This document shows positions 8,536 to 28,940 of a stretch of DNA of 64,000 nucleotides, piece after piece. Under the pieces are notes generated by a model. It worked only from the letters and a program-made list of their open reading frames with translations. It had not been told where the DNA came from and did no database searches. Within the stretch, counting starts at the first letter, position 1; each line of letters opens with the position of its first letter. The stretch is from a virus, in IMG/VR virus record IMGVR_UViG_3300013132_000025, positions 65,641 through 129,640 of that record; one strand, written 5' to 3'. Position numbers and translations under genes: made by a program.

Positions 8536-9073
8536 TTAAATCCTTTCTATTTATAATCCATAAACATTCCTACAAGGATAAGGAAGAACCCTATCCCCAG
8601 AATGCATACCAATAAGAATCCCAATGCATCATGGATTGCCTGCATCAGTCATCATCCTGCCTTTTCTTAACTTCCCAGATCATGAGAAGTATCAGTATGA
8701 GTGGCACTCCCAGCCATACGATATATTGACCAAAGAAATACATACAACTACTCTACCAGAAATGCTCGCAGATTTCAAAGGGCTGGGACTCCTTTGCCAA
8801 TTCATACTTTGCGTTTTAGGGATAGGGGGGGTACCCTCATGAGCGGCAAGCGCTCCCAGCCCAAGCATCTATCGCACGCATCCTTCATGCATAATCCAAC
8901 TTGGGAAAATTGCTTACAGATTTGAGAGGAGGGGGACTCCCTTTGCAGATATGGGTACCCTTATATCGTAAGTGATATGGGGGGAGGGGGTGCTACCCTG
9001 TGTTTATACAGGAGGGCTTTGTAGTCACACTTGTATGTCACAAGTATGTAAGTTACATGGGGCCATGCTTCCC

Positions 9074-9484
9074 TTACTTATCCCATGCGGGGGATACCAG
9101 ATACATAACCAGCATGGTCACAATGCCAATCCATCCCAAGGCCCCGAGGAAGGCTGAGATGATGAGGCCCCCCATCATAGCCAGCAGGATAGCGGCCCCT
9201 ATCAACCCTGCGGAATAAAGCCCTAGGGTATTGGCCTTTCTCCTCACGGGGTTCTGCCTCTCCTTGTCCTTCTTGGCCTTCTCCCATGAGGAATCCCATG
9301 AACCTTTACCCCACCTAGAAACCTGTACGGGCACGCTGTTTACATGGGGAGACACGATAGGCCCACTATTCACCACTTCTCCCCCATCCTCCCCACTTGC
9401 ATCGGATGTGTTATCTATCCCATAACCAAGGGCTATACGACTCCCATCCATGTGGCTATAGTCTGGTGATGTGTGTGACGCCAT
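9074..9484 (-). CDS. Possible membrane protein (uncertain; lies in CCCAT-rich DNA)
   Basis: C-terminal hydrophobic helices; weak RBS. Confidence 0.3.
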   Translation of the reverse strand: MASHTSPDYSHMDGSRIALGYGIDNTSDASGEDGGEVVNSGPIVSPHVNSVPVQVSRWGKGSWDSSWEKAKKDKERQNPVRRKANTLGLYSAGLIGAAILLAMMGGLIISAFLGALGWIGIVTMLVMYLVSPAWDK

Positions 9485-9661
9485 TGTTACGTTACATCCT
9501 TCTGTAGTTGTATGTATGTGACATAAGTTATAGGGCCGCCGAATGGGGTTCCCATGCCGAGGCATAGCCGCCCCCTCTGCTGCGTTCTCCCCCATACTAT
9601 CATATGTGTCAAGGCCTCGCCGTGTGCGTTTGTACCGCCTGTCCTTCTATGGGCCATGAGC

Positions 9662-9945
9662 GTTGGATGAATCCATGAGAGGCTCTGTACGGGCCTCGGA
9701 TGGGCCGACCCATGCTAGGACATAGGCAAGGGGGTCGAAGGCCCGTGTAGGCCCTCCTGTGGCTTCCTGTGCATGGTGTGGTGGATGCCGCTCCCTGTAT
9801 CCGAGGAGGAAGGTGCATCTCTATCGGTCATGGCCGTTGGATGAATCGCTGAGAGGCTTTCTACGGGCCGCGCCTCGGGGTGCCCATGCTAGGACATACC
9901 CCTGCCCCTCGGAGGCCGTCCTGTGCCCTCCTGTGGCCTCTCAGC
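9662..9945. repeat. Two degenerate ~110-bp direct repeats (GTTGGATGAATC..GAGAGGC..TACGGGCC..CCCATGCTAGGACATA)
   Basis: Cores at 9662-9724 and 9836-9898; further degenerate copies at ~12781-12835 and ~13287-13333. Confidence 0.75.
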
Positions 9946-10063
9946 CCCGGTCCCCTGTATCCCGGTCCCCGGTCCTGCTCCCTGTCCGGGTGGATGCTCC
10001 CCGGAACGACGAAGGGCCACCCGAAGGTGGCCCCTGTCTCCCTGCCCGTTTGTACCCGGTGTG

Positions 10064-10261
10064 CTAGGCGGCTCGCTGGCGGGCCAGCGCGTCCTCGGCC
10101 TCAGCGCGAGTCGCGTAAACCGCTGCCCACGGCTCGCCCTTCATCTGCACGCTGACGAAGTAGGCGCTCTCGCCCAACAGCGCGTCACCGAGGTCGGTGT
10201 AAACGCACTCCATGGCGTGAGCCGGTGCGTGCTTGGCGATGAACTCGTCGGTGATACTCAT
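10064..10261 (-). CDS. Small early hypothetical protein
   Basis: MSITDEFIAK..., AAGGAG RBS, own promoter, downstream hairpin at ~10013-10035. Confidence 0.7.
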   Translation of the reverse strand: MSITDEFIAKHAPAHAMECVYTDLGDALLGESAYFVSVQMKGEPWAAVYATRAEAEDALARQRAA

Positions 10262-10301
10262 GGTGATTCTGCTCCTTGGTCGGTTTCGTCTTGCCCCCCT
10301 G

Positions 10302-10330
10302 TTTATACACCCTGCCCCGGATGGTGTCAA
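10302..10330 (-). promoter_or_regulatory. Sigma70-type promoter
   Basis: TTGACA-17-TATAAA. Confidence 0.65.
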
Positions 10331-10391
10331 GCGCCAACGAAAGAGGGGGCCTCGCGGCCCCCTCCCTGTCCAGCCCGACCACGACAGCGGG

Positions 10392-11423
10392 CTAGAACAC
10401 CGTCACCTCCTCCACCTCCTCCTCGGAGAGCAGGCCAGCCTCCACGATGAAGGGCGAGACCCCGGTAGCGTCCTTCCCGTAGATGGAGGTGCTGCTGACG
10501 AACAGGGCGTCCTCGGCGCGGGTCATGGCGACGTAGGCCATCCGGCGCTCCTCCTCCACCTCCTGCGGGGTCTTGGAGAGCCGGTGGGGCATGATGCCAT
10601 CGCTCATGCCAGCGACGAACACCACGGGCCATTCCAGGCCCTTGGAGCGGTGGATGCTCAGGACGGTCACGGCGTCCTTCTCGTTCTCGTCCCGGAGGTC
10701 AGAGGCCTTGGCCGTGATGTTCTCCTGCTCCATCACCCACGCGATGAAGGCCGCGAGGTCCGTGCCGAAGTCGGCCCCGGAAAGGGCTACGTCCTCCACG
10801 ATGGCGATGTTGCCGTCGCCGTTGGTCTCGGGCGTATCGTTGTCCTCCTCGGCTTGGTCACGCAGCCACGCGGCCACCCCGGAGTCCTCGGTGATGCCGC
10901 GCACAATGTCCACCACCGGGGTCGTGCCGACCTGCTCGCGCCACCTGCGAATGAGGGCGATGAACTCGTCCATGTTGGCCTTCTGCTTGCGGCTGATACG
11001 GGCCGAAGGCAGGCCGTGGAACGGGTCGCTCGGGGAGGCAGCGGCAGCCTGCCCAGCGACAGCCTTGCCGAGAAAGCGCGAGGGGGTGGCGAGGGCCGTG
11101 GTGAGGTCGTCGGCGGTGGCCGAACCCACCAGCACCTTCAGGTATGAGGTGATGGCCTGAGTCTGGTACCGCGCCCAAAACGACGGGGCACCGATGATGC
11201 GGAAGGTGAAGCCAGCGCGGATAAACGCGCCCTCCAGCGGGCGGGTCTGACGGTTGGTACGGACCAGCACGGCGATGCTGGCACCGGGCACCCCGGCGTC
11301 CCGGAGAGCCTTCACCTGCGATGCGATGGCGTCGGCCTCCTCGCCCTCGTCGCCGTAGTGCGCGTAGTTTACGGGCGAGAGCGCGGTCTCCGGGCTGATG
11401 GCGATGGTCTCGGTGTTCTCCAT
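10392..11423 (-). CDS. UvrD/PcrA-family helicase, C-terminal half (separate gene)
   Basis: IAVLVRTN, IIGAPSFW, VTVLSIHRSKGLEWPVVFV (motif V), EERRMAYVAMTRA (motif VI); own RBS AAGGAGCATCACC-ATG. Confidence 0.9.
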   Translation of the reverse strand: MENTETIAISPETALSPVNYAHYGDEGEEADAIASQVKALRDAGVPGASIAVLVRTNRQTRPLEGAFIRAGFTFRIIGAPSFWARYQTQAITSYLKVLVGSATADDLTTALATPSRFLGKAVAGQAAAASPSDPFHGLPSARISRKQKANMDEFIALIRRWREQVGTTPVVDIVRGITEDSGVAAWLRDQAEEDNDTPETNGDGNIAIVEDVALSGADFGTDLAAFIAWVMEQENITAKASDLRDENEKDAVTVLSIHRSKGLEWPVVFVAGMSDGIMPHRLSKTPQEVEEERRMAYVAMTRAEDALFVSSTSIYGKDATGVSPFIVEAGLLSEEEVEEVTVF

Positions 11424-11501
11424 GGTGATGCTCCTTCTCGTTGTGTGGGGAGATGGTATCAGAGATAGGGCCGGGGGCACAAGCCCCCGGCCCCTCCCCG
11501 T

Positions 11502-12563
11502 TTATCCGGCGATGAGGTGGGCCACCGGGAAGGCCTCGTCCTCGTCCTTGTTGGCCGTGACAGCCTTGCCCAGCCGCTCCTCGTTGTGAGCGATGAGGCG
11601 GGCCGCAGCGTCCACGATGGGGCGGCGAGAGCGGTAGTTGGTGCCGAGGTTCACCACCGTCACCTTCTCGCCCGTGGCCTGAGCGATGAACTCGGCAGGC
11701 ATCGCACCCCGGAATGAGTAGATGCTCTGGTCGTCGTCCCCGACGTAGGTGATGTTGGCGGTCTGCTCGGAGAGCAGGTTCATCAGGCCGAACTGGACCG
11801 GGTTGCAGTCCTGCGCCTCGTCCACCAGCACCCACTCCACGTTCCCGATAACGGCCTCGCGCACCTCGGGCTTACGGGCAGCGGCCAGCCCCTTGATTCC
11901 CATGCATGAGAAGGTGACGCTAATCTTGCCCGCCCTGCGGCGCTCCCAGCCCTTGCGGCCCCGGTACCAGCCCTCGGCCAGCAGGGTCTCCATCACCTCG
12001 TACACGCGGCCCACGATGGCACCGTCCGTGTCGAACTCGTCCAGCGTGGCGTAGAACTGCGACGGGGTGAGGTTGCAGTCCATGGCGCGAGACACGGCCT
12101 TGGCAATCTTGCCAGCCTTGCGCGGCATCTCCTTGTCCCCGAACTCGCCAGCGAGGTCGCGCCCGAAAGGGCAGTAGGTGGAGGCAGGCTCGATGATGCC
12201 CTTCACCATGCCCGTCACCTGTCCCGGCGTGAGCATGGAGCCACCCTTGGGGCGGGCGTCAATCCGGCGACCCTTCTCGGCCCGGTAGAACTTGTAGCCC
12301 AGCGAGTGCAGGGTGCCGATGTGGGCCAGCCCGTTTACAGCGTCCTCGCCCACCAGCCCGATGAGCCGCTGCTTCATCTCGGCAGCGGCAGCGGTGGTGA
12401 AGGTAGCCACGACGATGCTCTGCGGGGCGACACCATCGGTGATGAGGCGGGCGACTCGGTGAACCAGCACGCGGGTCTTGCCCGACCCCGCACCCGCGTT
12501 GATTACAAGCGGCCCCTCGCCGTGTGCGATGGCCTGCTGCTGCTCGGGACTCATGGTAGCCAT
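11502..12563 (-). CDS. UvrD/PcrA-family helicase, N-terminal half
   Basis: EQQQAI (Q), AGAGSGKT (I), TFTTAAA (Ia), DEAQD (II), VGDDDQSIYSFRGA (III), NYRS (IV); RBS GAGGAGGAG. Confidence 0.92.
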   Translation of the reverse strand: MATMSPEQQQAIAHGEGPLVINAGAGSGKTRVLVHRVARLITDGVAPQSIVVATFTTAAAAEMKQRLIGLVGEDAVNGLAHIGTLHSLGYKFYRAEKGRRIDARPKGGSMLTPGQVTGMVKGIIEPASTYCPFGRDLAGEFGDKEMPRKAGKIAKAVSRAMDCNLTPSQFYATLDEFDTDGAIVGRVYEVMETLLAEGWYRGRKGWERRRAGKISVTFSCMGIKGLAAARKPEVREAVIGNVEWVLVDEAQDCNPVQFGLMNLLSEQTANITYVGDDDQSIYSFRGAMPAEFIAQATGEKVTVVNLGTNYRSRRPIVDAAARLIAHNEERLGKAVTANKDEDEAFPVAHLIAG

Positions 12564-12609
12564 GTGATGCTCCTCCTCGTTCGGCGGGGTCCGTTCCCCG
12601 TGTGCAGGC

Positions 12610-12639
12610 ATCGTAGCACGACTGCCCCCGGATGCACAA
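12610..12639 (-). promoter_or_regulatory. Extended -10 sigma70-type promoter for the helicase
   Basis: TTGTGC-18-TACGAT with TGn; upstream GTACAAACGAGGCC. Confidence 0.6.
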
Positions 12640-12899
12640 GGCCTCGTTTGTACGGGGACCGCGCACCCGCACCTGCGGGCGGCTATCACACCTTGTCCCC
12701 GGATGCAAGTGCCCTCCTCGGGCGATTGTCACAAAGTCCTGTTCACAGTTGTAAAGTGCCTGCTCCGAGCAGGGCTTTCTCTGAGAGGGCTTGTCCGGGC
12801 CTCGGAGGGTGTCCCGAGGGCTACCACACCTAGGATTCAGAAAAGCCCATAGCCAAGCCATTCTTATGCTGTAAGAGACCCCCCTAGAATCTCCTTAGA

Positions 12900-13200
12900 G
12901 CGATTGTGCTGAGACTTTGTGCGAGATTGGCACAAGCGGTGACGGGGTGCTTGTGCGGATTCGGCACAATCTCAGTTGCTTGCAGTCGCAAGTGCTTGAT
13001 TGCACTCGCAACGACTTTGTAGCACTTTGTTACGAGAATCCCTGAAAAGTCTGAGGCTTTGTCGGGAATAAAACCCGGAGACCTCATTGGGATTCTTGTG
13101 CTGATTTCGCACAATCTCGTTGCAGTTGCAAGCACCTTGTCCAGATTTGCACAAGCCTCGCTCATGTAGGTATCCGCACAATGTTATTGCACCAGCAAGC
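12900..13200. repeat. Non-coding cluster of GCACAA/TTGTGC iteron-like motifs
   Basis: At least nine GCACAA/TTGTGC copies in both orientations, including GCACAATCTC twice (~12964, ~13109). Confidence 0.7.
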
Positions 13201-13470
13201 ATCGGCCCACCTCGTTTATACCGGGTGGTGGCCCTTACACGATTGAGAACCAGAAGTCAAGGGCTACGGTCCTCAGATTCGACGCTCTGAGAGGCGATAT
13301 ACGGGCCTCGGAGATGCCACCCCATGCTAGACCCTTCCCGAAGCATCCGAGGCCGTTCTAGGCCCCTTAGAATCGCTCCCAGCCCCTATCCCGGTCCACG
13401 GCCCCACCCCACCATGCAGAAAGGGGGCCTCTCGGCCCCCTCCCCGTTTACACCACCTGTCGCCCTCGGC

Positions 13471-13653
13471 CTAGTAGTCGTCCAGCACCTCCGAAAGAGC
13501 GGCGTGCAGGGCCTCCACCTCATCCCCGGTGAGGGCCACAGTCACCTGTGGGCCGTCCAGCGTGGGGTAGGCATGGAGCGTGATGCGAGCGTCCCCGTCA
13601 CCGAGGTTCTCGGTGAACACCACGGGGCCGTGGTTGGATTCGATGCGAGCCAT
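13471..13653 (-). CDS. Small acidic hypothetical protein
   Basis: 60 aa, high-GC codon usage, followed by a hairpin at ~13420-13443. Confidence 0.65.
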   Translation of the reverse strand: MARIESNHGPVVFTENLGDGDARITLHAYPTLDGPQVTVALTGDEVEALHAALSEVLDDY

Positions 13654-13656
13654 CGT

Positions 13657-14028
13657 TTACACCGCCTTCCGCTCGTCAGCCTCGCGGGCAGCGGCGAGAA
13701 GCGCCTCGGCAATCTCGCGTGCCTGCGCGGCGGTGAACTTGGCGTGAACATAGCCCTTCTCCATGGTGATGTTCCGCCCGTCCGGGTCATGCTCGGAGCC
13801 AGAGCGCCCCAGACCGAGGTCGGCCTTGGTGCCCAGCACCATGACCACGACCTCCCCGTACCTGTCTCCAAAGAGGGTGTCGGTCTGCCGGTGAGTCGTG
13901 AATGAGTCGTTCCGCTCACGGATGAGAGTGTCGTCACCAATGCCGTAGGTGTATGGCCCGGTCCCGACACCCTCCACGTTGTACGTCGCGTACTCGTCGG
14001 TGTCGTAAGTGTCAATACGGATGCTCAA
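13657..14028 (-). CDS. Hypothetical protein (TTG start, LSIRIDTY...)
   Basis: AAGGAG RBS; extended -10 TGCTACACT upstream. Confidence 0.65.
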   Translation of the reverse strand: MSIRIDTYDTDEYATYNVEGVGTGPYTYGIGDDTLIRERNDSFTTHRQTDTLFGDRYGEVVVMVLGTKADLGLGRSGSEHDPDGRNITMEKGYVHAKFTAAQAREIAEALLAAAREADERKAV

Positions 14029-14153
14029 AGGATTCTCCTTGTTTGAGGTTGAGCCGAGTGTAGCACGCCTGTCAAACGGATGCCCTGCCTCGTTTATACG
14101 GACAGGGGAGGTGAGGGGGAGGGGATGGACGGTCCCCTCCCCCTCGGGGAGAC

Positions 14154-14918
14154 CTACGCGCCGTGCGGGGCGGTGGTCTTGGGCCTGCGGGTCTTGCGGG
14201 CGACGACCTGCATACGCTGGTGGCAGCAGGGGCAGTACGGCGTGCCAACGGCTTCCAGCCACTTGGCCGTCATGTTCACGTTGTAAACGTCCTTGCCCTC
14301 ACCGCTGGGGTCGCAGCCACGGGTGCCGTCCTCCTGCTCGGTCTGACAGGCGACCTTGACCAGCCGGGTGGTCTGAGGCTTGTGGTTCACGTTCATGCCC
14401 TTGTGCGGGTACTCGCCCAGCGACTCGCGCAGGCGGGCAGTCAGTTCCACGAAGCGGTCCCCGGCGTAGGTGGCGGTGGGCTTACCGGCGAGGCCGATGG
14501 CGCGAATCATCTCCACGAACGGACCCTTGTGGCCGTTCTTGTTGCCGTCAATCGCGTGGACAATCTCGTGCGCGAGAACGTCCAGCACACCCGGCTCACG
14601 CTCGTCGAATCCGAGGTTGTTCTTGCGGCCCGTCTTGGGGCCGATGGTGTGGGCCAGCGCGGGCGACACGGTGATGTGGCGCACGTTGCCCTCCGGGGAG
14701 TTGGTCTCCGGGTAAGCCATGCCGACGACCGAACCCTTGCCGGTACGCTCGCCCAGCCACGCCCGCTTGTGCGAGAAGGACAGGTGAGCGGCGACGGTGT
14801 AGCCCTCGGGCATGGTGTAGCCAGCCTCGGCGAGAATGTCCAGCAGGCCGGTCGTCGCGGCGAGAATGTAGGACTCAGGCGTGTCGTGAACCTGAGCGTG
14901 AAGCGGTGAGTAACCCAT
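14154..14918 (-). CDS. SprT-like zinc metalloprotease with C-terminal Zn ribbon
   Basis: VLAHEIVHA..GHKGPF motif; C-terminal CQTE..C..CPCC. Confidence 0.8.
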   Translation of the reverse strand: MGYSPLHAQVHDTPESYILAATTGLLDILAEAGYTMPEGYTVAAHLSFSHKRAWLGERTGKGSVVGMAYPETNSPEGNVRHITVSPALAHTIGPKTGRKNNLGFDEREPGVLDVLAHEIVHAIDGNKNGHKGPFVEMIRAIGLAGKPTATYAGDRFVELTARLRESLGEYPHKGMNVNHKPQTTRLVKVACQTEQEDGTRGCDPSGEGKDVYNVNMTAKWLEAVGTPYCPCCHQRMQVVARKTRRPKTTAPHGA

Positions 14919-14951
14919 GATGCTGTCTCCTTGGTCGGTTGCTGCTAGGGC

Positions 14952-14980
14952 AGCGTATCAGTTGAGAGCGGGGAGTGCAA
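14952..14980 (-). promoter_or_regulatory. Sigma70-type promoter
   Basis: TTGCAC-17-TACGCT; a second promoter TTGTAT-17-CATAAT at 15019-15047. Confidence 0.6.
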
Positions 14981-15079
14981 GTGCCCGGTGTGGGCGGCTC
15001 GTTTATCCCTGCCCCGGCATTATGACAGAAGCGCCGGGGAGATACAAGGCCCTCTCGTTTATCCCTTGTTTCCTAGAGA

Positions 15080-15322
15080 TTAGAGGGCCTCTCGCTGGCT
15101 CTCCATGTAGCGGCGAGCCGTGGCCTCGTCCCCATAGACATTCCCTGCGTAGGACTGCCCATCGAAGTTCACGAGGGCAACGCCATACTCGGGCGTGGAC
15201 CCATCCAGCAGGTAGAGAGCGGCGTAACAACCCGCAGGGGCGGTAGGAACGGCCTCTACGAACACCGGGTTCCGCGCCTTCCATCGGGCTGGCGGGGTGA
15301 TGGTGATGGTTGCGATGCTCAT
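15080..15322 (-). CDS. Hypothetical protein
   Basis: MSIATITITPP..., GAGGAG RBS. Confidence 0.65.
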   Translation of the reverse strand: MSIATITITPPARWKARNPVFVEAVPTAPAGCYAALYLLDGSTPEYGVALVNFDGQSYAGNVYGDEATARRYMESQREAL

Positions 15323-15390
15323 TGGTGTCTCCTCGTCGTTGCTCATGGTGGGGAGCATATCACGGATGGAGGGCGGGGCATAGGCCCCGT

Positions 15391-15576
15391 TTATCCCTCC
15401 ACCCATGACCACACCTCGGGGTCGCTAGGATGCTGCTCGGGGAGGGTGGCAAGCCTAGGCCATACCCGCATCCCCTCCTGCTCCATGATGGAGAAGGCAG
15501 CGTTTACACGCGGCGTGATGTTCGTGAACTCACCAGCCCGGAGCCACTCCATGTACCGCTGCTCATCGCTCAACAT
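15391..15576 (-). CDS. Hypothetical protein
   Basis: MLSDEQRYMEW..., overlaps upstream gene end. Confidence 0.5.
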   Translation of the reverse strand: MLSDEQRYMEWLRAGEFTNITPRVNAAFSIMEQEGMRVWPRLATLPEQHPSDPEVWSWVEG

Positions 15577-15748
15577 AACCCAACTTCCTTTGGATAAGCC
15601 ACGCATCCAGAGCGTCCTGAATAAACGTGGTAATGTTCTCCTGCACCGTATCGAAGTCCACGGTGCCCTCCTGCTCGTTCCACTCTCGGATGTTGAGAGA
15701 AACCTCAACATCAATCGGGAGCGTAATCTGTCCATCTATCACAGCCAC
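15563..15748 (-). CDS. Small acidic hypothetical protein
   Basis: AAGGAGGA RBS. Confidence 0.55.
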   Translation of the reverse strand: MAVIDGQITLPIDVEVSLNIREWNEQEGTVDFDTVQENITTFIQDALDAWLIQRKLGYVER

Positions 15749-15906
15749 TCCTCCTTGTGCTTACGCTTGCGCGTGTACGTTGCGGGCACGCTGTAAACGC
15801 GGTCCTTGCGCGTGCGCCTGACCTGAATGCGAGTGCGCTCACGGATGCGGCGTGCCCGCTTAGGCTCAATGAACCTATCCTCGCTCTGCTGCTCCTGCTC
15901 GTACAC
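15739..15906 (-). CDS. 55-aa Arg/Lys-rich peptide (not in ORF track)
   Basis: GTG start with AGGAG RBS; ...RKDRVYSVPATYTRKRKHKEEWL. Confidence 0.6.
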   Translation of the reverse strand: MYEQEQQSEDRFIEPKRARRIRERTRIQVRRTRKDRVYSVPATYTRKRKHKEEWL

Positions 15907-16020
15907 GATTGTCTCCTGTTGGATAACTAACTAACTCGGAACTTTAGCAGATGAATAACTATCTATCTGCTAACCATCTAAACGATGATAAAGTCCATCG
16001 AAGTAACCATCTTGCCCTCA

Positions 16021-20834: not shown

Positions 20835-20836
20835 GA

Positions 20837-21692: not shown

Positions 21693-21975
21693 CTTATCTC
21701 CCTTGATTGATGCCTAGGCAGCATACATCATAAGACTGACTAGAACAAGTGCCTGTTTATTTGATAAACTCATTCACAAGTTCGTTGAGGTCAATCTCGT
21801 CAATCCAATAACCGTACGAGCCTAGATACTGACCAGCAGCGTCGTAAACAGATGCACTACTGCCACCTCCATCGAACTAAACGAGTTCCAAAACCTGTTG
21901 AGGGTCGTCCTCGGAATGAACGTAAACGTGAGTAGCCTCAAACTCAGAGTAAGTAAAAGCCATTGTCTTTCTCCT

Positions 21976-22452
21976 TTATCCGTACACCACACTACCGAAA
22001 GCGGCAACCTGCACAATGCAGTCAGCCGCATCGCCGTCAATCATGCCGGGGTCGTTCTCCTGCACGGCACGACGAATGTAGCCGGTGATGGTGTTATTTG
22101 CCATATGACTGTTCTCATCCAGAAACTTCTGGATGGCCTCGGTGATGTTGGTGGCGTTGATGGTGTAAACATTGACCTCGCCACTACCCTCATCACGCTC
22201 AACAATGTCGGTGACAGTAACCTGCTGCCAGCGTTCGAAACCATCCGGGGTCTCAGCCTTCTTAGCAACAAGGTTATTCAGTTCCGCCCAATAGTAGCAG
22301 ACACCATAAGAGCCATCGAAAGCACTCACAAGAATGCAATCAACCATAGCCTCGGTGATAGGAAGTTGCGTGGTGACAACGCCAACAACCTTAGAGTTGT
22401 CGTACATCTCAGCCTCGGCTTCCAGCATCTCCCTCACATATGGGTCAGACAT
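21976..22452 (-). CDS. Conserved hypothetical phage protein
   Basis: AFDG..YYWA..IDGDAADCIVQVAAFGSVVYG; AAAGGAG RBS. Confidence 0.7.
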   Translation of the reverse strand: MSDPYVREMLEAEAEMYDNSKVVGVVTTQLPITEAMVDCILVSAFDGSYGVCYYWAELNNLVAKKAETPDGFERWQQVTVTDIVERDEGSGEVNVYTINATNITEAIQKFLDENSHMANNTITGYIRRAVQENDPGMIDGDAADCIVQVAAFGSVVYG

Positions 22453-22529
22453 TGTGTTTCTCCTTTCGTAGTTCATCTGAATAGATGATATCAAACAGAC
22501 CAACTCAGCACAAGAAAGTGTTTATACGA

Positions 22530-22808
22530 CTAGGCGCTAAACATCTGATGGTAATGCTCCTCGGGGGTGAGGATGTTTAGGCCGTAACGAAAATGACCGG
22601 GACCAAACCAGATTGGGTTACGGTACTCATCACTCATACGATGCCGCCGATAGTCATTCCAGATAGTCGCCGGGTGACTCCACAACTCGCAAACGTAATC
22701 CTCAATGTCATGGTAGTTTACACTATCCATAGAGATGATGTATTCCTCTACGAAATCCCAGAACAACTCATCAGACCTACCATCATATCCGCCAGCAACG
22801 TAAGCCAC
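22530..22808 (-). CDS. Hypothetical protein
   Basis: GAGGAGAG RBS, GTG start. Confidence 0.55.
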   Translation of the reverse strand: MAYVAGGYDGRSDELFWDFVEEYIISMDSVNYHDIEDYVCELWSHPATIWNDYRRHRMSDEYRNPIWFGPGHFRYGLNILTPEEHYHQMFSA

Positions 22809-22842
22809 AATCTCTCCTCTCCTATAAACTTGTTGATAAAAG

Positions 22843-22942
22843 CACCCCTAGCGGGAGTCGAACCCGCGATAAACCTCCGCATAAACATCACAAGCGTCCT
22901 TGTGAATGTCCCGGCGTCGTTGCCATCTAGACCATTAGGGGC
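22843..22942 (-). ncRNA. tRNA-like element with the anticodon arm replaced by a long hairpin
   Basis: Acceptor GCCCCTA/TAGGGGT, D-arm GTC-TAGATGGCAAC-GAC, T-arm GCGGG-TTCGACT-CCCGC; anticodon region CCG..ACATTCACAAG-GACG-CTTGTGATGT..CGG; no encoded CCA. Confidence 0.7.
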
Positions 22943-23244
22943 CACATTATAGACGGTTCCACACAGGGGCTTGATGCTCCTAAAAACAATGCCTCTGCCG
23001 TCACCGACAACCGAACCCTTAGTTAGTTTATACACAGATGGCCCCGAGCGACGGCTAGTTCTTAGATGGTGCCGAATAACACCACGCTCATCTATGTATG
23101 TTTAGACTGCTTATCATTTATGGCTCTCGCGCTCATCGTCCCACAATGGTTGATGAGATTTCCCGACCTACCAATCGGTTTCTTACGGAGATTCCTCCAC
23201 CCCACTAGGTCAAAGGTGGTAGCCCTCGCCTAGTCGGTCGTGAA
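22943..23244 (-). ncRNA. ~300-nt structured non-coding RNA between the hammerhead and the tRNA-like element
   Basis: No credible ORF. Stems ATACATAGATG/CATCTGTGTAT, GAGCG/CGCTC, TGGTG/CACCA, CTCATC/GATGAG, GACGG/CCGTC; possible pseudoknot ACTAGG/CCTAGT plus CCACC/GGTGG. Confidence 0.5.
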
Positions 23245-23296
23245 AGCCGTTGATGCCCGTAGGCATTTCGTCCTCTAAGGACTCATCAGAACGGCT
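23245..23296 (-). ncRNA. Type I hammerhead ribozyme
   Basis: AGCCGTT-CTGATGA-GTCCT TAG AGGAC-GAAA-TGCC TACG GGCA-TC-AACGGCT; intact core, AUC cleavage triplet, predicted cut between 23252 and 23251. Confidence 0.9.
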
Positions 23297-23301
23297 AAAA
23301 A

Positions 23302-23451
23302 CTACAGTTCTATCGTGGAAGCACCATCAGTCTGCAACTCCATGACCCACCCCTCACGCCACTCATTTATAGCACAAGCCTCACCAAAAGACGCATAAGG
23401 ACCGAAAGCGGTATATCCATCTGAAAGATTACCAGCGAGAAAGACAAACAT
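23302..23451 (-). CDS. 49-aa hypothetical protein (not in ORF track)
   Basis: MFVFLAGNLSDGYTAFGPYASF..., AGGAG RBS; stop 5 nt before the hammerhead. Confidence 0.55.
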   Translation of the reverse strand: MFVFLAGNLSDGYTAFGPYASFGEACAINEWREGWVMELQTDGASTIEL

Positions 23452-23503
23452 TCTTACTCCTCTCTTTGATTACTCTACGAGAATACCACCTCGGCTCAGA
23501 AAG

Positions 23504-23755
23504 TCAAGAGCCTGAATAAACGTAGGATATCTGAGCCTCTACCTCATCAGCATGACGCTCATCAAGAAACCGATTGTCCGGTGCGCCCCATATGCTCTGC
23601 CCCATGATGTTAGAAGCCGCAGCCTTGGAAGCATCCAGAAGCGAAGTCACTAGAGACATAGCATCCTTTGGGTCCATACGAAGTATAAACCCGTTACGTT
23701 CGTTACCTGAATGGATAACTACTTCATCTTTGTAAACCGCAACAAACAAACTCAT
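23504..23755 (-). CDS. Hypothetical protein
   Basis: GAGG RBS; promoter TTGACA-17-TAGTAT at 23792-23820. Confidence 0.6.
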   Translation of the reverse strand: MSLFVAVYKDEVVIHSGNERNGFILRMDPKDAMSLVTSLLDASKAAASNIMGQSIWGAPDNRFLDERHADEVEAQISYVYSGS

Positions 23756-23838
23756 ACCGTTGCCTCGTCTATCTGCTTGCCACACACCTAGATACTACAG
23801 GCCCCCTCCCCCAATGTCAAGGGAAGGGGGCAAGGTGT

Positions 23839-24336
23839 TTAGATGGCAGCGCCCATGAAGTCCTCATTCGGCACCTCAACAACACCACCGACAATCTCCA
23901 CCTCCACAAAGGCGGGGACAGGCTCGGAAAAAGAAGCGGTGGTAGCCTCGCCGGTCAGCACCTTAGCAACCTTGTCCAGCCTGTCACGAAGGGCCTTGTT
24001 CTCAGCCTCCACAGCCTCTAGACGCTGAATAAACGAGATGCTAACAGTCTCATCATCCATAGACTCGCTAATCTTGCCCTCAATAATCCACTCAACGCGA
24101 GTGTCGAAGTCCTCAATGTCGTCGGACTCAAAGGTGCGCCAACGCAGCGCCTCCTCAATCTGGTCTGAGATATCAAGGTTGTTGTCAAGGTATTCCTGAA
24201 CACGACCGTCAATATCTGCCTCATCAACGACATTCTCAGCAACATCTCGGATAAACGACTCGTTGTTGTAAACCGCATCGGCGGCCTTCTCATCAACGAG
24301 GGTCTCAATGTCAGCGGGCCAATCCTCAAAACTCAT
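23839..24336 (-). CDS. Highly acidic helical/coiled-coil protein
   Basis: Very D/E-rich, periodic; AAAGGAG RBS. Confidence 0.7.
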   Translation of the reverse strand: MSFEDWPADIETLVDEKAADAVYNNESFIRDVAENVVDEADIDGRVQEYLDNNLDISDQIEEALRWRTFESDDIEDFDTRVEWIIEGKISESMDDETVSISFIQRLEAVEAENKALRDRLDKVAKVLTGEATTASFSEPVPAFVEVEIVGGVVEVPNEDFMGAAI

Positions 24337-24400
24337 GGTATCTCCTTTAGTTGATTGCTTCCTGAGAAGCATAGCATGGGGTGTTGCAGAAAAGCAACTG

Positions 24401-24805
24401 CTAGTGTAAACGCTCAGGCTCGTCCAAAGACTCCTCTAGGGAGAGGCGAGCGGTAGTGAGAGCCGGTGGCTCGTAATCAGTCCCGTAGCCGCTTACGCTA
24501 AGAGTAGCGTTGATAAGAGCGCGAATCTCGTCCTCGTACAGATAGAAAGGAACCTGCCCCTCATCCAAAACTTCCTCCCACTCCTCACTAATGAGCGACA
24601 AAGACACTATCTGCTCAATGTTGAGCATTACCTCATACTCAGGAGCAGAACGGATAAACGTCTTTCGTGCTTTGATAGTCTGCAACGAAGTAACGTGATT
24701 GGCGAAGTCCCTCAATCTATGCGCGCCATTCTTGTCGTTGCCCCAACCACTATAAAGAGTCTGTCCATCAGTTGTGCGAATCTGAATGTAACTCGTCTTG
24801 CTCAT
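24401..24805 (-). CDS. Hypothetical protein
   Basis: GGAGG RBS. Confidence 0.6.
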   Translation of the reverse strand: MSKTSYIQIRTTDGQTLYSGWGNDKNGAHRLRDFANHVTSLQTIKARKTFIRSAPEYEVMLNIEQIVSLSLISEEWEEVLDEGQVPFYLYEDEIRALINATLSVSGYGTDYEPPALTTARLSLEESLDEPERLH

Positions 24806-24973
24806 CTAAACCTCCACCTCAATGTTGTTAGCCGCACCACGAACATCCCATCCGTAGTACCCCTCAATCATAGAAGCGGCCTCATCAATAATGTCATCTC
24901 GCTCTCCCGAAGGGGGCGTGATGATTGCAGTAGAAAGAACAAAGTAGTCTCCCACAAAGGTAACAGTAGTCAT

Positions 24974-25252
24974 TTACTTGTCCTCCTCTCGGACCCAAAA
25001 AAAGTATTCCTCAATCTCCACAAGGTTGTCTGTTCCACAGTATAGGTCGTAAATCGCAAGATTCCTTGCTTCCAGATTGTCAGCCGCCGATGCAGGGCTG
25101 TCGTCATACTCCTTGAGAAACAAATCAAGCGCAAACAAACGCGCTTGCTTCCAGATATAATCACGAGCATCCATCTCGTTATCAAAAGAACGGACTCCCC
25201 AATCATCCTCAGAATGAGGAACTGCTCCGATATAGTTCCATCCTGCCAGCAT
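24974..25252 (-). CDS. Acidic hypothetical protein
   Basis: AAGGAGG RBS; promoter TTGTGC-17-TAGTCT at 25286-25314. Confidence 0.6.
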   Translation of the reverse strand: MLAGWNYIGAVPHSEDDWGVRSFDNEMDARDYIWKQARLFALDLFLKEYDDSPASAADNLEARNLAIYDLYCGTDNLVEIEEYFFWVREEDK

Positions 25253-25322
25253 TCCGCCTCCTTTGGTCAATCAACTTACACGAACAGACTATCAGACTGC
25301 CTTGGACAGCACAAGTCCCTGT

Positions 25323-25670
25323 TTAGTCGTCGTAGTCGCAGGGAAAAGACTCCTTCTCCAAGTGATAAAGGTAGTCTCCACGGTCTGCTAGGTAGTCGTC
25401 ATAGTCAGCCTCAGCCATCTCACAACAGGTATCAAAAGTGAGTTCCATAGGAGTCCAGAAGTCTCCATCCTCCTTCTCCCCATGCACCTCGGTAATCATG
25501 CGGTATTCCTCCATGACCTCTTGCTCGGTGCCGATGAAGTATGGGATTTCATAGTCCTTGACTATCTTGCCTGTCTCCGGGTCTGTCTCGTACAAACCCC
25601 ACAGGCCCTTATCCGAGATTTCCTCGGCCTGCTTCTGGAAAGCGTACTCAGGCGGGTCATACCATGACAT
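25323..25670 (-). CDS. Acidic hypothetical protein
   Basis: MSWYDPPEY..., GGGGAG RBS. Confidence 0.6.
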   Translation of the reverse strand: MSWYDPPEYAFQKQAEEISDKGLWGLYETDPETGKIVKDYEIPYFIGTEQEVMEEYRMITEVHGEKEDGDFWTPMELTFDTCCEMAEADYDDYLADRGDYLYHLEKESFPCDYDD

Positions 25671-25868
25671 TACAGATTCTCCCTTGGAACGGGTACACAC
25701 TTGGGGCAAAATGGAAGCCCCCCGGCCCAAGTTATTGCCTTGGTTGCTGGGTTGATAAACACCACATTATCCTCATTTACGATGTGACCACACATACACT
25801 TGATTGTGTCAGTTGCGGTATCTTTACTTATATTATCCATCATCTAACTCTCCTCTCCTTACCTTATC

Positions 25869-25988
25869 TTACCGGGCGTGCCAAAAGTTAGGCTTAGGCA
25901 CGTTGGTCTTGTGAGGCTTGCTTACCCCCATCTTGGTAGCGCGAACCTTGCGGCGCCTGTTAGTAACCGAACGACGAACTTTCTTCAT
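25869..25988 (-). CDS. 39-aa basic peptide (not in ORF track)
   Basis: MKKVRRSVTNRRRKVRATKMGVSKPHKTNVPKPNFWHAR; AAAGGAG RBS; promoter TTGACT-17-TAGAGT at 26029-26057. Confidence 0.55.
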   Translation of the reverse strand: MKKVRRSVTNRRRKVRATKMGVSKPHKTNVPKPNFWHAR

Positions 25989-26048
25989 GTTGTCTCCTTT
26001 GATTGGTGTCTATCTTACTTACCGTGTAACTCTACCACCTAACTCACA

Positions 26049-26231
26049 TCAAGTCAAATCATCGTCGTCATATTCATCTATAACTATAAACTCTCGGACA
26101 AACATAAGCAATATCCCTGAAACAATAGCCCACAAACCCGCGTTCCAATCTCCCGAGAAAAAGTAATAGGCCCCGAAAAAGAAACACACAAGACCAACAA
26201 ACAGGGATAGGATTCTAACTAACTCAGTCAC
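26049..26231 (-). CDS. Small two-TM membrane protein
   Basis: Two hydrophobic helices, acidic tail. Confidence 0.55.
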   Translation of the reverse strand: MTELVRILSLFVGLVCFFFGAYYFFSGDWNAGLWAIVSGILLMFVREFIVIDEYDDDDLT

Positions 26232-26550
26232 TCTTGACTATCTCTTTCCATACAAGATATGCTGCTTTGCTTGCGTTGTCCAGACGAGACCACCTTTCCC
26301 TATAGAACCTTACCTTTGTCTGAATAGCATGGTAAGACTCCATTTGTACCTCTACCCGGAGAACATCTTTACTACCGGGGAAGTCAGGAACCTTGGGCTT
26401 TCGGATGATGCTTGCAACATCCTTTGCCACAAGGTATTCCCGGTGAGCCTCATTGGAACGACGAGAGATTACCTTCCACGCCCTATAGAACAGTTCTGCA
26501 TTCTTTGGGCTAGGCTCGGACATAACGAGTACCTCGGCGCTCTCCCTCAA
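26224..26550 (-). CDS. Hypothetical protein
   Basis: Basic, helical, in operon. Confidence 0.5.
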   Translation of the reverse strand: MRESAEVLVMSEPSPKNAELFYRAWKVISRRSNEAHREYLVAKDVASIIRKPKVPDFPGSKDVLRVEVQMESYHAIQTKVRFYRERWSRLDNASKAAYLVWKEIVKSD

Positions 26551-27355
26551 TGTTTACACGCTCATCATTCTGTAGGACGTAACGAACACTCGTCCACTCG
26601 GTAGTTGAGAGGCCGAAATGCAAGATGAGTTCGGCCTTAGAAGTCGGCCCATTGTCCTCAATAAACTGCACAATGACATTCATCACTTCTGTATCAACAG
26701 TCGGCGTCTTGTCCTCAATAACCACTTCATAAGTTCGGCCCGGAACTGTGTAGTTGGTCCCACGCTTAGTCCCGTTCTTTACTACCTTACCAGACTCAAC
26801 AGCGGCATTGATTACATCTGAATAAATAGACGCGGGGATAAGGTCTCCAATAGCCTTCTTGGTTACAGGCTGGTCTGCCTCCTCAACAAAGCGAATAAAC
26901 TCGTCACGCACCTCGGAGATACGCTCGGCCTTCTCATCGCTCTGCCTACGACCGGGCTTGTAACGAAGCACACGGCCATACTCATCAACAGGTGCCCCGC
27001 GTGCAATCGCGGCTTGGTCTGCACGCTCCTGACACTTAGAAATCCACCCCTCCAAATAATCCTCACGGTGCTGCACAGCCTCGTCCTTGGGGAGAGAACG
27101 AAGCAACTCCATACGATTGTCGTGAACCTCGTTTAGTTCACCGAAGGGTAGAGTAATCCTGTCGTTGTCGGATGTAAGAATAGTTGCTTCCTTATCCTGC
27201 GCTGCAAGAACAAGAGCGTATCTAAATCCACCCTCGCTGCTCCAAAAACTGATTGTATCGCCACGAACCGGCGCTTCTTTAGTCTGCATATCATCTCCCT
27301 CCTTTGGCTGAATATTACGCTTGCTCAGTTTGCTGCTTGCTCGCTTCTTACCCAT
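26510..27355 (-). CDS. DNA-binding protein with two C-terminal winged-HTH repeats
   Basis: Wings GTKRGTNY and GERRGTRY; alternative start at 27289. Confidence 0.6.
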   Translation of the reverse strand: MGKKRASSKLSKRNIQPKEGDDMQTKEAPVRGDTISFWSSEGGFRYALVLAAQDKEATILTSDNDRITLPFGELNEVHDNRMELLRSLPKDEAVQHREDYLEGWISKCQERADQAAIARGAPVDEYGRVLRYKPGRRQSDEKAERISEVRDEFIRFVEEADQPVTKKAIGDLIPASIYSDVINAAVESGKVVKNGTKRGTNYTVPGRTYEVVIEDKTPTVDTEVMNVIVQFIEDNGPTSKAELILHFGLSTTEWTSVRYVLQNDERVNIEGERRGTRYVRA

Positions 27356-27368
27356 ATAAGTTACCTAC

Positions 27369-27593
27369 CTAACTATTCGTTGTCAAGGCCTCATCGAAAA
27401 TCGCGTTTAGACTGTCTGCGATAATATCGCGCTCCTTGGTCAGACACGGCGAACATTGAGCCTTGGGGTTATACCGAGAGAGGCGGGCATCGCATCGGGT
27501 ACAATGCCGCGCCTCCGCAGGCTTATCATCTACAAAGTCGAAGGGCACCATATCACCCATCATGTTTGCAGGAATAATCTCATCAAATCGCAT
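27369..27593 (-). CDS. Small zinc-finger protein
   Basis: CTRCDARLSRYN...CSPC. Confidence 0.6.
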   Translation of the reverse strand: MRFDEIIPANMMGDMVPFDFVDDKPAEARHCTRCDARLSRYNPKAQCSPCLTKERDIIADSLNAIFDEALTTNS

Positions 27594-27602
27594 AATGGCT
27601 CC

Positions 27603-27860
27603 TTAGAAAGACTCGGGGTACCAAGTCGAAAGAACCGAGATAATCTGGTTGAGAGAGAAAGAACCGAACTGATGGTCGGTAAATGCCTCAGTCTCAGTAA
27701 TGTCCTCAACCTTCCAATCCTGCTTACGCCCACGCTTACCCGTACCGTGGATACGAAAGCGCCCGTCCTTGGACTCATAGAGTCCCGGCTGGACACGATG
27801 AATAGCGCGAGTACGCGGGCGACCCCGGCCCTTCTTAGTCTCAACAGTTGCAGTAGTCAT
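27603..27860 (-). CDS. AT-hook-containing small protein
   Basis: KKGRGRPRT; AAAGGAG RBS; promoter TTGCAT-17-TAAGTT at 27899-27927. Confidence 0.6.
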   Translation of the reverse strand: MTTATVETKKGRGRPRTRAIHRVQPGLYESKDGRFRIHGTGKRGRKQDWKVEDITETEAFTDHQFGSFSLNQIISVLSTWYPESF

Positions 27861-27954
27861 ATGCATCTCCTTTAGGTCGTATTGACGTTGTACCAAGTAA
27901 CTTATCACAGGTACTATAGAGATGCAAGTGTATATGTAATATTATTGCGGGGGA

Positions 27955-28010
27955 GTATAAACGCTGACAGCATATAAATCCCGACATAATGGGGGCGTAT
28001 AAACGCTGAC
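27955..28010. repeat. Direct repeat GTATAAACGCTGAC x2 (42-bp period)
   Basis: Copies at 27955-27968 and 27997-28010. Confidence 0.8.
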
Positions 28011-28445
28011 CTACGAAAGTTCATCGTCAAGAGGCGGGGCGTCGGGGATAGAGCGGATAAACTCCTCAACCAACGCTTCTTCTTGCTCACCGACCTTTTC
28101 ATCCACGCGCTTTTTAAACTCACTTACCCGTGACTGATATTCCTCGGGGAAAAGCGACTGCATCTGCTCAATAGAAATAATAATAGTCGCCATGGCGCTG
28201 GCAAAGTCAGAAAGAGATGATACAACGGTGCGCCCATTTGGCGTTTCCACAATCTCTGCCAACTCATCTGGGGGAATCTTTGACATTCTTACGTCCACCT
28301 CTGAACCAAGGGCGCTAAGGAGGTTGTGAATACCCTCAATGACCACAATCGCCATATCTTCCATGGTCATTTCTTTGGCGATTTCCCAATTTGCATTGAC
28401 AATCATTCTTAGTTTGTCAGGCATATCATTGTTTTTATTATGCAT
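28011..28445 (-). CDS. Hypothetical protein
   Basis: 144 aa. Confidence 0.6.
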   Translation of the reverse strand: MHNKNNDMPDKLRMIVNANWEIAKEMTMEDMAIVVIEGIHNLLSALGSEVDVRMSKIPPDELAEIVETPNGRTVVSSLSDFASAMATIIISIEQMQSLFPEEYQSRVSEFKKRVDEKVGEQEEALVEEFIRSIPDAPPLDDELS

Positions 28446-28492
28446 AATTAACTAACTAACTTTCTAATAGAGAATTTATCTAACTAACTAAC

Positions 28493-28669
28493 TTAAATCA
28501 TACCCATTTTACGGAACGGAGATGGGCAACCTACAGGGCAAAACCCGTCCATTTCTATACGCTCACCGTGAGGGCAGATAAGAAAGAAGTCATATGGGTC
28601 AGAGCCTTCTATTTCCCAACCATCAGGCAAAATATCTTGCAAAATATCTATCAAACTATCTTCACTCAT
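28493..28669 (-). CDS. 58-aa Cys-rich protein (not in ORF track)
   Basis: ...LICPHGERIEMDGFCPVGCPSPFRKMGMI. Confidence 0.6.
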   Translation of the reverse strand: MSEDSLIDILQDILPDGWEIEGSDPYDFFLICPHGERIEMDGFCPVGCPSPFRKMGMI

Positions 28670-28940
28670 CTTCGCCTTCCTGCAAAGAAATTAACAAACT
28701 ATCTATCTGACTATTTACTGCTGCAAGATTATCCATCATTGCTTTCTTAATCTTATCAGAACGGGCTTCATGAAACAACTGCATAAGTTCGTCCCTTTCC
28801 AGAAATAGATCAATTAACTTATTTGATAGATATAACTTTTGTTCCGCTATTTCTTTCTCTTCAAGCGCCTCTGCCATCTTTTTCCATAGATGTTCTGCTT
28901 GATAAAAGCGCCACGGGTCTTTTTCTTCTTTTTCACTCAC
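28662..28940 (-). CDS. Hypothetical coiled-coil protein
   Basis: 92 aa in coupled operon. Confidence 0.6.
   Translation of the reverse strand: MSEKEEKDPWRFYQAEHLWKKMAEALEEKEIAEQKLYLSNKLIDLFLERDELMQLFHEARSDKIKKAMMDNLAAVNSQIDSLLISLQEGEDE

Follow-up and report, generated by a model that had tools for sequence, protein, structure and literature searches.

A 20-kb block lacking GATC and other short DNA words in a large phage genome: a candidate first-exposed segment

The DNA analysed here is a 64,000-nucleotide stretch (the window) that represents bases 65,641-129,640 of the single-contig virus record IMGVR_UViG_3300013132_000025 (129,640 bp; referred to as G000), and the subject of this report is a block in its left part from which the word GATC is absent. 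GATC occurs at positions 8678 and 28808 of the window and nowhere in between, which leaves a GATC-free domain of 20.1 kb (8679-28807) with a GC content of 0.54. The gap of 20,130 bp (log10 p about -24 by the gap statistic) is the sole long one among the 396 GATC sites of the whole record, the second-largest gap being 2,042 bp. The phage has recognisable genes for a portal, a large terminase (TerL), a DNA polymerase, a DnaB-type helicase, an exonuclease, RecA, a primase, ThyX and a deoxynucleoside monophosphate (dNMP) kinase. The minus strand carries 127 of its 160 open reading frames (ORFs, greedy set), and the GC content outside the block is 40%. Megablast of positions 8000-30000 and 35000-55000 against 50,697 phage records returned no nucleotide relatives. 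In public sequencing runs, phage DNA was found in 24, all at contig level and with depth given as one word-depth figure per contig; near-identical DNA was present in two lake-water runs (one of them possibly the record's own source), and a relative of about 95% identity in a wastewater run.

The block contains 47 ORFs, all on the minus strand, with a median length of 98 amino acids and a coverage of 81%. Its GC content is 0.544 and peaks at 0.667 over 2 kb, while that of the flanks is 0.35-0.42. The first-pass annotation of this DNA, made from the letters alone, had described a GC shift and dozens of tiny ORFs in this interval, and both are borne out. The predicted products are often acidic, the isoelectric point (pI) being below 4.5 for 24 of the 47, compared with 15 of 117 elsewhere. 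We searched PHROGs with the 30 longest of the 47 ORFs and Pfam with 20 of those. The only named matches among the 30 were a UvrD-like helicase, split in two, and DUF4241, and nine other ORFs matched unnamed or weak PHROG families only. The helicase (10392-12689, minus strand; Pfam UvrD-helicase 1.1e-50, UvrD_C 6.4e-38) spans two ORFs that share a frame, 11502-12689 and 10392-11480, between which lie one stop and a linker of about 40 amino acids, with a GC content at third codon positions (GC3) of 0.86-0.89. The split is conserved, since nine homologues of 349-362 amino acids share 71-94% identity and the next matches fall to 37-39%. For the acidic 165-amino-acid protein encoded at 23839-24372, a structure predicted from a 13-sequence alignment was too poor for a fold search (mean predicted local distance difference test 52.9, predicted template-modelling score 0.23).

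The absence of GATC was compared with three null expectations. Base composition predicts 76.7 sites in the block and a Markov model predicts 83.7. In the third, a composition-free test, synonymous codons were permuted inside each gene; this synonymous shuffle predicts 58.2 +/- 5.6 sites in the 47 block ORFs, and the minimum over 500 shuffles was 36. With none observed where 58-84 are expected, GATC is far under expectation by all three, and it is common in the flanks, as had been noted by eye. The avoidance can be followed into the choice of codons. After a codon ending in G, isoleucine in the block is encoded by ATT (53 times) or ATA (18 times) and never by ATC, which is used at 146 of the 241 other positions; the earlier remark that ATC gives way to ATT after G is thus confirmed. 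Likewise, all 61 aspartate codons that precede a codon with an initial C are GAC and none is GAT, and the codon pair NGA-TCN occurs 0 times in the block and 52 times in the remaining genome.

Using the synonymous-shuffle null, we scanned all 4-6-mers for words whose observed and expected numbers differ in the block ORFs or in the other ORFs. Besides GATC (observed/expected 0/58.8 in block ORFs and 374/420 in other ORFs), the words TTAA (1/24.7 and 749/774), AATT (2/22.9 and 924/955), GAAGA (2/23.8 and 588/477) and ACTGG (2/20.0 and 201/200) were avoided in the block only, and in the other ORFs these five stand at 0.89-1.23 of expectation. TTCAA is also avoided in the block only (1/12.3 in block ORFs by the shuffle; 531/565 in the rest by the Markov model rather than the shuffle). 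The control palindromes CATG, CTAG, TGCA, GCGC, CGCG, TATA and ATAT match expectation in the block. A second set of words is avoided genome-wide: AGCT (0/35.0 in block ORFs and 0/349 in other ORFs), CCWGG (1/43.8 and 0/121), CTCGA (1/39.7 and 4/64.6), TCGA (18/71.0 and 59/208) and ACGT (0.67 of expectation in the block and 0.52 in other ORFs). The results confirmed that the sequence avoidance in the block is real and is broader than GATC alone. The first-pass annotation had proposed a purge of a GATC-specific restriction target; the loss of GATC stands, but the specificity for GATC does not, because at least five further words are missing in the block only.

The non-palindromic words are depleted in both orientations on the coding strand of the block (observed/expected 2/14.1 for GAAGA and 0/9.5 for TCTTC, 0/10.8 for ACTGG and 2/8.7 for CCAGT, and 0/5.7 and 1/6.7 for the two orientations of TTCAA/TTGAA), which indicates recognition of double-stranded DNA, as by a restriction enzyme, and not selection on mRNA or codons. 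Six-base palindromes are also sparse, at 3.4 per kb in the block compared with 11.5 per kb elsewhere, and 43 of the 64 are absent from the block. As separate observations on the genome as a whole, AGCT does not occur once in the 129.6 kb, where about 290-390 would be expected, and is also absent from the relatives G001, G002 and G003 described below and from loci L002, L003 and L005. GAGATC/GATCTC occurs 3 times outside the block compared with 38.4 expected, while GATC itself is not depleted there, a possible sign of a 6-bp specificity at work on the entire genome.

The zones without the block-only words share their edges. TTAA is missing from 8668 to 28113 (genome gap 74307-93754) and otherwise occurs every 153 bp on average; AATT is missing from 8909 to 28387 (genome gap 74548-94028) and TTCAA/TTGAA from 8775 to 28859 (genome gap 74414-94500). 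The zero-zones of four words start inside 325 bp on the left and end inside about 0.75 kb on the right. The GAAGA/TCTTC zone (8584-25981; genome gaps 74223-91622 and 91622-93718) has the common left edge and, apart from two sites at 25982 and 28078 that precede normal density, the same right edge. In the remaining genome the zero-zone words occur every 130-330 bp. When the gap statistic was applied to 641 words, 35 had a log10 p below -8 in G000, all of them over the block; many of the flagged words are A/T-rich and therefore confounded by the GC shift, so that the synonymous shuffle is the composition-free test.

Two candidates for marks at the right boundary were considered. The 12-nt repeats at 28608-28714, viewed as possible stop-region repeats, fall within an ORF, and G001 does not conserve them. 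The 10-mer CAAACTATCT, which occurs only at the right boundary, in two copies in G000 and in one copy each in G003 and G002, is coding sequence, is lost in G001 and was judged a chance occurrence (search E = 0.35). A search for Chi-like oriented oligomers returned only codon-driven asymmetries such as CTCGTC.

The block differs from the rest of the genome in codon use and in its promoters. GC3 is 0.65 in the block and 0.30 elsewhere. The 11 phage tRNAs, encoded outside the window, read AAA, GAA, CAA, AGA, GGA, GTA, TTA, TTG, ATA, AAY and ATG. The family fractions of AAA, GAA, CAA, AGA and TTA are 0.10, 0.12, 0.18, 0.07 and 0.03 in the block, compared with 0.62, 0.73, 0.74, 0.43 and 0.25 elsewhere. 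Thus, the codon use of the block is complementary to the phage tRNAs, and the codons that they read are avoided there. GC3 also forms a gradient in the block: the left 7.5 kb have 0.67-0.77 and the right edge has 0.51. In G003 it falls from 0.61 to 0.44, with the high end at the left boundary as in G000 despite the opposite strand of the genes.

The block has its own promoter family, TAAAC-RRGSMCTTG-N17-TAYGMT, in which an upstream TAAAC-RRG box is followed by SMCTTG as the -35 element and, after 17 nt of spacer, by TAYGMT as the -10 element. The block holds ten of the 16 loose matches in the genome, all on the gene strand; in G001 the figure is 9 of 16. The block promoters are at 12609-12650 (with an upstream TAAACGAGG box), 14950-14991, 16225-16266, 16887-16928, 18972-19013, 21718-21759, 23790-23831, 25284-25325, 27356-27397 and 27897-27938, all motif matches on the minus strand; those at 16225, 16887, 18972, 21718 and 25284 have the TAAAC box, and the one at 23790-23831 (TTGACA-17-TAGTAT) was also found by the sigma-70 scan. 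The generic sigma-70 scan gave 17 sites in the block compared with 13.2 +/- 3.5 in shuffles, and generic signals (sigma-70 sites and terminators) were enriched neither in the block nor in the flank (44 compared with 43.2). Of the earlier description of the segment as host-promoter-rich, then, the block-specific family holds and a general sigma-70 enrichment does not. From their TTG-type -35 and TAnnnT -10 elements, the block promoters are probably used by the host RNA polymerase. AGGAGG ribosome sites are present in the block, and together with the TAnnnT -10 elements they resemble Gram-positive and actinobacterial signals. The hexamer TAAACG, which is the box upstream of the block promoters and frequently overlaps stop codons, occurs inside block ORFs 27 times compared with 7.7 expected. 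Over both strands, the 20-kb block has 40 copies (17 and 23 on the gene strand and the opposite one, respectively) and the other 109.5 kb have 43.

At the left boundary lies a conserved non-coding element (8770-9040) with two copies each of GGGACTCC and GATA[TG]GGGGG. The element aligns over G000, G001 and G003 and is a candidate cis site (terminus, packaging or entry). Two independent contigs 99.3-99.6% identical to G003 end at most 133 bp apart at this element, from opposite sides (G003 16555-16688, corresponding to about 8.75-8.95 kb of the window). Five assemblies run through it, namely G000, G001, G003, one further contig and a 105-kb Logan contig; and because an A/T-rich low-complexity run lies beside the contig break, the contig ends are only a weak hint of a physical terminus. 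Two related ideas were discarded. The boundary motif as a marker of genome ends matched three contigs, none of which ends at the motif, and a break between 8695 and 8756 in run X2 has about seven other breaks in the same 20 kb beside it.

Eight viral contigs encode a portal 85-96% identical to that of G000, and three long ones were analysed whole. G001 (portal 96% identical) is syntenic with G000 throughout, block included, at 67-88% nucleotide identity, and bridges both ends of the G000 contig. Thus, the map is circular, and the contig ends are not termini. In G001, 39 of the 47 block ORFs are found and the block has a GC content of 0.546. Its set of missing words is different: GATC is reduced (36 compared with 101 expected), TTAA is retained, and zones without AATT, TTCAA, GAAGA and ACTGG extend over 16 to 24 kb, those for AATT, TTCAA and ACTGG measuring 20-24 kb. 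The gap scan (about 640 words) flagged 34 words with a log10 p below -8 in G001 and 18 in G003. When 27 GATC sites of G001 were aligned to G000 genes, 12 proved to be lost through purely synonymous change and 14 together with an amino-acid change, and 1 fell in a gap. That the orthologous blocks of G000 and G001 lose different words, partly by synonymous change, indicates that the purge took place in situ and is specific to the lineage.

G003 and G002 (portal 86% identical) have no nucleotide similarity to the G000 block, and similarity returns exactly at both edges. At the protein level, 16 of the 47 block ORFs have homologues in them, 15 on the opposite strand, with the order of modules rearranged. 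The word-free zone of G003 measures 10 kb (GATC 16192-26381, TTAA 16574-26122) and starts at the homologous left boundary; in G003 and G002 it does not extend to GAAGA or TTCAA. The plus-strand early genes of G003 reach about 30.8 kb, 4 kb past the zone. Since these genes lie on the opposite strand and run past the zone, the zone is tied to position and not simply to a transcription unit. A chimeric assembly, which would have explained the block away, is excluded, as G001 is syntenic over both boundaries and G003 crosses both block ends. In addition, the 105-kb Logan contig, from run X1 (possibly the record's own source), covers 1-20000 unbroken.

Two further observations concern the distribution of block DNA. 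The 118-amino-acid ORF at 16926-17282 (minus strand) has a G003 homologue of 41% identity and no G001 match. It is thus found in G000 and G003, which are GATC-free, and not in G001, which keeps GATC, although with three lineages only this may be chance. In wastewater run X3, a relative was compared over window positions 1-20000: the block matches at 90-99% identity with a depth of 3.7-8.9, and the left flank has a depth of 0-2.4. This relative lacks 506 bp (12808-13315) and carries a 480-letter replacement at 13670-14091. That it matches the block but hardly the left flank suggests that block cassettes move between genomic backgrounds.

On the left of the block, a conserved 144-amino-acid protein is encoded at 5290-5724 (minus strand; 88% and 72% identity in G001 and G003, respectively). 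It may resemble a pyrimidine-dimer glycosylase, has 540 relatives in viral contigs and served as the anchor for locating other phages, yielding 80 loci. ThyX, tried as an anchor in the same way, returned just the two G001-type contigs. The loci include five genomes, G005-G009 (loci L107-L124), among them a complete 134-kb genome that shares 9 of the 160 ORFs with G000. They have domains of 17-19 kb free of several palindromes, with tiled sub-zones, adjoining the homologue of the 144-amino-acid protein: G006 is TTAA-free over 16130-34980, G007 is TGCA-free over 21277-38405, and G009 is GTAC-free over 72749-90045 with nested ATAT, TTAA and TGCA zones. GAAGA is among the missing words in G006-G009. 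Because the GC content hardly changes in these domains, site avoidance can be separated from the GC shift.

Further to the left, a 3,216-amino-acid ORF (genome 61232-70882) ends about 3.5 kb from the block, and window positions 2-5242 are its N-terminal-encoding part. Its sole match is PHROG 3170 (function unknown) at the N-terminus, and no Pfam domain was found in the 1,747 amino acids searched. At the start of the contig (genome 38-4270) are four tandem paralogous ORFs of 328-374 amino acids, which probably caused the assembly to stop there. On the right, the first recognisable gene beyond the block encodes a ThyX-type thymidylate synthase (29204-30088, minus strand; Pfam Thy1 7.4e-41), followed by the dNMP kinase (31254-31817, minus strand; Pfam DNMK 5e-23), which is 27% identical to a T5 sequence by tblastn (7e-10).

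The block also holds several non-coding elements. A tRNA-like element with a GGTTCGACTCCCGC T-arm lies at 22829-22912 (minus strand), inside a 493-nt gap between genes (22809-23301). Rfam, run on 8000-30000, gave only an 18-nt match to the T-arm of tmRNA at this element (18.5 bits, cut-off 47). ARAGORN called a 96-98-nt 'tRNA-Cys(aca)' at the corresponding place in G001, G002 and G003 and made no call in G000. In tblastx translations, the element and its counterpart in G003 share 76-95% identity. A GC-rich repeat of about 80-100 nt (TAGCATGGG ... CCGAGGCCCGTA ... GCCTCTCA) has four intergenic copies at the high-GC end of the block, two in 9596-10063 and one each in 12690-12883 and 13166-13470, with no Rfam match. 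Runs of the GTTAGTTAGTTAG type, with a stop codon in three frames, recur just 5' of ribosome-binding sites, at 15907-16020, 17726-17800 and 28446-28500 and upstream of 30064-30345.

We propose, with a confidence only just above even, that the block is a pre-early leading domain, the part of the chromosome that is first exposed in a naive host before the other DNA is protected. The block DNA would survive and be expressed in a naive host, while the other 110 kb would remain outside the cell or be shielded by block products. Any restriction site in the block would be lethal, and selection would strip the targets of the enzymes met by the lineage, codon by codon. The block would be read by the unmodified host machinery through host-type (sigma-A-like) promoters and G/C-ending codons, and the remaining genome would rely on A/T-ending codons served by the phage's own 11 tRNAs. 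Some of the small acidic block proteins may disarm restriction, and DNA entry may be ordered or proceed in two steps, as it does in T5. Since a cut anywhere on the chromosome kills the phage, a purge confined to the block would be of use only if the block and the other 110 kb are not exposed together, and such unequal exposure points to ordered or two-step entry or to rapid protection by block products. The idea of the first-pass annotation that this segment meets host restriction first is the best-supported reading of the block; the order of DNA entry is something we infer from sequence.

Several points weigh against this proposal. The evidence behind it is sequence, at contig level in all 24 runs. 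The nearest cultured relatives, Rhodococcus phage E3 and mycobacteriophage Bxz1, are circularly permuted headful packagers, and a headful packager would send in a random part of its DNA first, a situation in which the reading fails; judged by a TerL identity of 35-38%, however, the packaging mode cannot be transferred from them. The block genes are transcribed towards the conserved left boundary in G000 and away from it in G003, so that a T7-style entry pulled by RNA polymerase would fit at most one of the lineages. No homologue of T5 A1, A2 or dmp was found by tblastn of the 160 G000 ORFs against T5 bases 1-50,000. The 30 block ORFs that were searched gave no match to a known anti-restriction family, and the inhibitors that the earlier annotation had placed in the block thus did not materialise as known families, but 24 of the 47 products have the low pI noted above. 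Finally, the first-step region of T5 has no purge of 4-bp or 5-bp words, so that the analogy with T5 is one of principle and not of magnitude.

SPO1 was the other phage invoked at first; its terminal redundancy holds a host-takeover module that resembles the block in its many small early genes and strong host-type promoters, and its DNA differs in containing hydroxymethyluracil throughout. Compared with T5 and BF23 (Tequintavirus), G000 likewise has a discrete block of small genes (the 47 ORFs), host-type promoters from which host polymerase probably transcribes, and adjoining genes for dNMP kinase and nucleotide metabolism. Site avoidance is confined to the region, for at least five words in G000 and for GAATTC in T5 (0 in the first-step region and 6 in the unique part). 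A T5-type region would have a non-coding injection-stop region with repeats at its inner boundary, and the conserved non-coding element with paired motifs at the left boundary of G000 is no more than a candidate counterpart. The differences are also clear. Only 1 of the 160 G000 ORFs, the dNMP kinase, matches T5 bases 1-50,000. G000 purges 4-bp and 5-bp words over 20 kb, while in T5 the 4-bp palindromes are normal, the 6-bp palindromes have normal density (14.6 per kb in the first-step region and 13.7), and there is no word-free zone. The T5 region is a terminal repeat, whereas the contig depth of G000 leans against one, and T5 has no GC or codon shift (0.40 and 0.39).

By structural genes, the nearest cultured phages are the cluster C mycobacteriophages (Bxz1), Rhodococcus phage E3 and Gordonia phage Skog, with portal identities of 40-45% and TerL identities of 35-38%, a distant likeness that does not amount to membership of a subfamily. 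The genome sizes, G000 included, range from 130 to 156 kb, and Bxz1-type phages carry tRNA clusters. Unlike G000, E3 and Bxz1 have a GC content of 65-67% throughout and no word-free zones (none of the 553 words scanned in E3 and none of the 605 scanned in Bxz1); the gap scan of T5, E3 and Bxz1 gave no word with a log10 p below -8.

The principle behind the proposal has precedents. In experiments with T5-like phages, Type I, II and III systems, clustered regularly interspaced short palindromic repeats (CRISPR) and related nucleases were effective only when their target was in the first-step-transfer region (PMC10644984; 10.1101/866236). For a T7-like Murciavirus, a study describes that only motifs in the early-injected, highly variable region set the sensitivity to restriction-modification, and its authors consider selection to be concentrated on this segment (PMC12455610). 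The leading region of such T7-like phages differs from the G000 block in that a single Type I motif, 40-kb podoviruses and transcription-driven entry are concerned there, compared with many Type II-like words and 130 kb here. In a T7-type leading region the early promoters would point inwards from the leading end; the block genes occupy the minus strand in two lineages, G000 and G001, and the plus strand in G003.

Among the alternatives, we regard it as unlikely that the block is a mosaic import, that is, that cassettes came from GC-rich donors whose whole genomes avoid these words, and that the composition records this history. Such an origin would suit the X3 relative, in which the block is matched at 90-99% and the left flank is hardly covered, the reordered and flipped modules of G003, the high GC content (65-67%) of the cultured relatives E3 and Bxz1, and the unrelated 134-kb phage group, in which each of the tiled zones is missing different words. 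However, the blocks of G000 and G001 are orthologous (39 of 47 ORFs, 68-88% nucleotide identity) and yet their missing words differ, and 12 of the 27 GATC losses are purely synonymous. The avoidance of AGCT and CCWGG is continuous over block and flanks, the helicase lacks a close source, whether cellular or foreign (71% identity inside the family falls to 39% outside), and imports alone would not align the zone boundaries of four or five unrelated words.

The first-pass annotation had also offered a long terminal repeat. A long direct repeat collapsed by the assembler, with the block boundaries as the physical genome ends, appears improbable to us, even though the first-step-transfer DNA of T5 is its 10.2-kb terminal repeat (by annotation), both block boundaries are sharp and the assembled map is circular. 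In run X2 the word depths were 8.22, 5.18, 6.31 and 7.37 inside the block and 7.36, 8.01, 6.31 and 7.19 outside; the means of 6.8 and 7.2 give a ratio of about 0.94 and not the 2 of a collapsed repeat, which is moderate evidence only, as these are per-contig figures with a possible GC bias. The terminal-repeat variant is thus disfavoured, and the first-exposed reading follows a known principle that is here far more extreme than in T5.

It is still more doubtful that the missing words are the targets of early nucleases of the phage itself, which would destroy host DNA while only the block is inside the cell, an explanation that would also require ordered entry. A preprint (bioRxiv 10.1101/866236) gives Davison's proposal of this kind for T5 A1, and the presence of ORF 16926-17282 in the GATC-free G000 and G003, with no match in G001, would be in keeping with it. 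On the other hand, a search of 30 block ORFs showed no nuclease domain, several enzymes would be required for five or more specificities, and the correlation concerns one gene in three lineages. Least probable of all is that the whole genome enters at once, with the rest protected by modification or co-injected proteins that spare the block or with cuts repaired by phage recombination: phage RecA, exonuclease, the ThyX homologue and the dNMP kinase adjoin the block, but no DNA methyltransferase of the Dam-type (PF02086), N6/N4 (PF01555) or C5 (PF00145) families was found in the record (82% complete by CheckV, so that this is not proof of their absence), the 396 GATC and 846 TTAA sites of the remainder would expose it to being cut to pieces, and we know of no phage modification that spares one contiguous 20-kb region.

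If the block is the first-exposed segment, its edges may be read from the coinciding zero-zones and its polarity from the GC3 gradient anchored at the conserved non-coding element, and the set of missing words in each lineage may report the restriction specificities of uncultured hosts. We put forward, tentatively and as something we would not expect to hold, the broader possibility that a lineage unrelated to T5, with probably no long terminal repeat, independently evolved a delimited first-exposed segment that is legible from sequence (20 kb in G000 and G001, 10 kb in G003), and that this is a common, unrecognised organisation of large freshwater phages, the unrelated 134-kb group having the same architecture. 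If the first-exposed reading of the block holds, one could map from sequence how far such DNA reaches in an uncultured phage, with no need of termini or cultures. The lists of missing words (GATC, TTAA, AATT, GAAGA, ACTGG and TTCAA in the block; AGCT and CCWGG genome-wide) would predict restriction enzymes in hosts that have not been grown, and the approximately 47 small, mostly acidic proteins would be a shortlist for new anti-restriction and host-takeover functions. The genome is also a clear case of two codon regimes in one phage, with the early genes suited to host tRNAs and the rest to the tRNAs of the phage.

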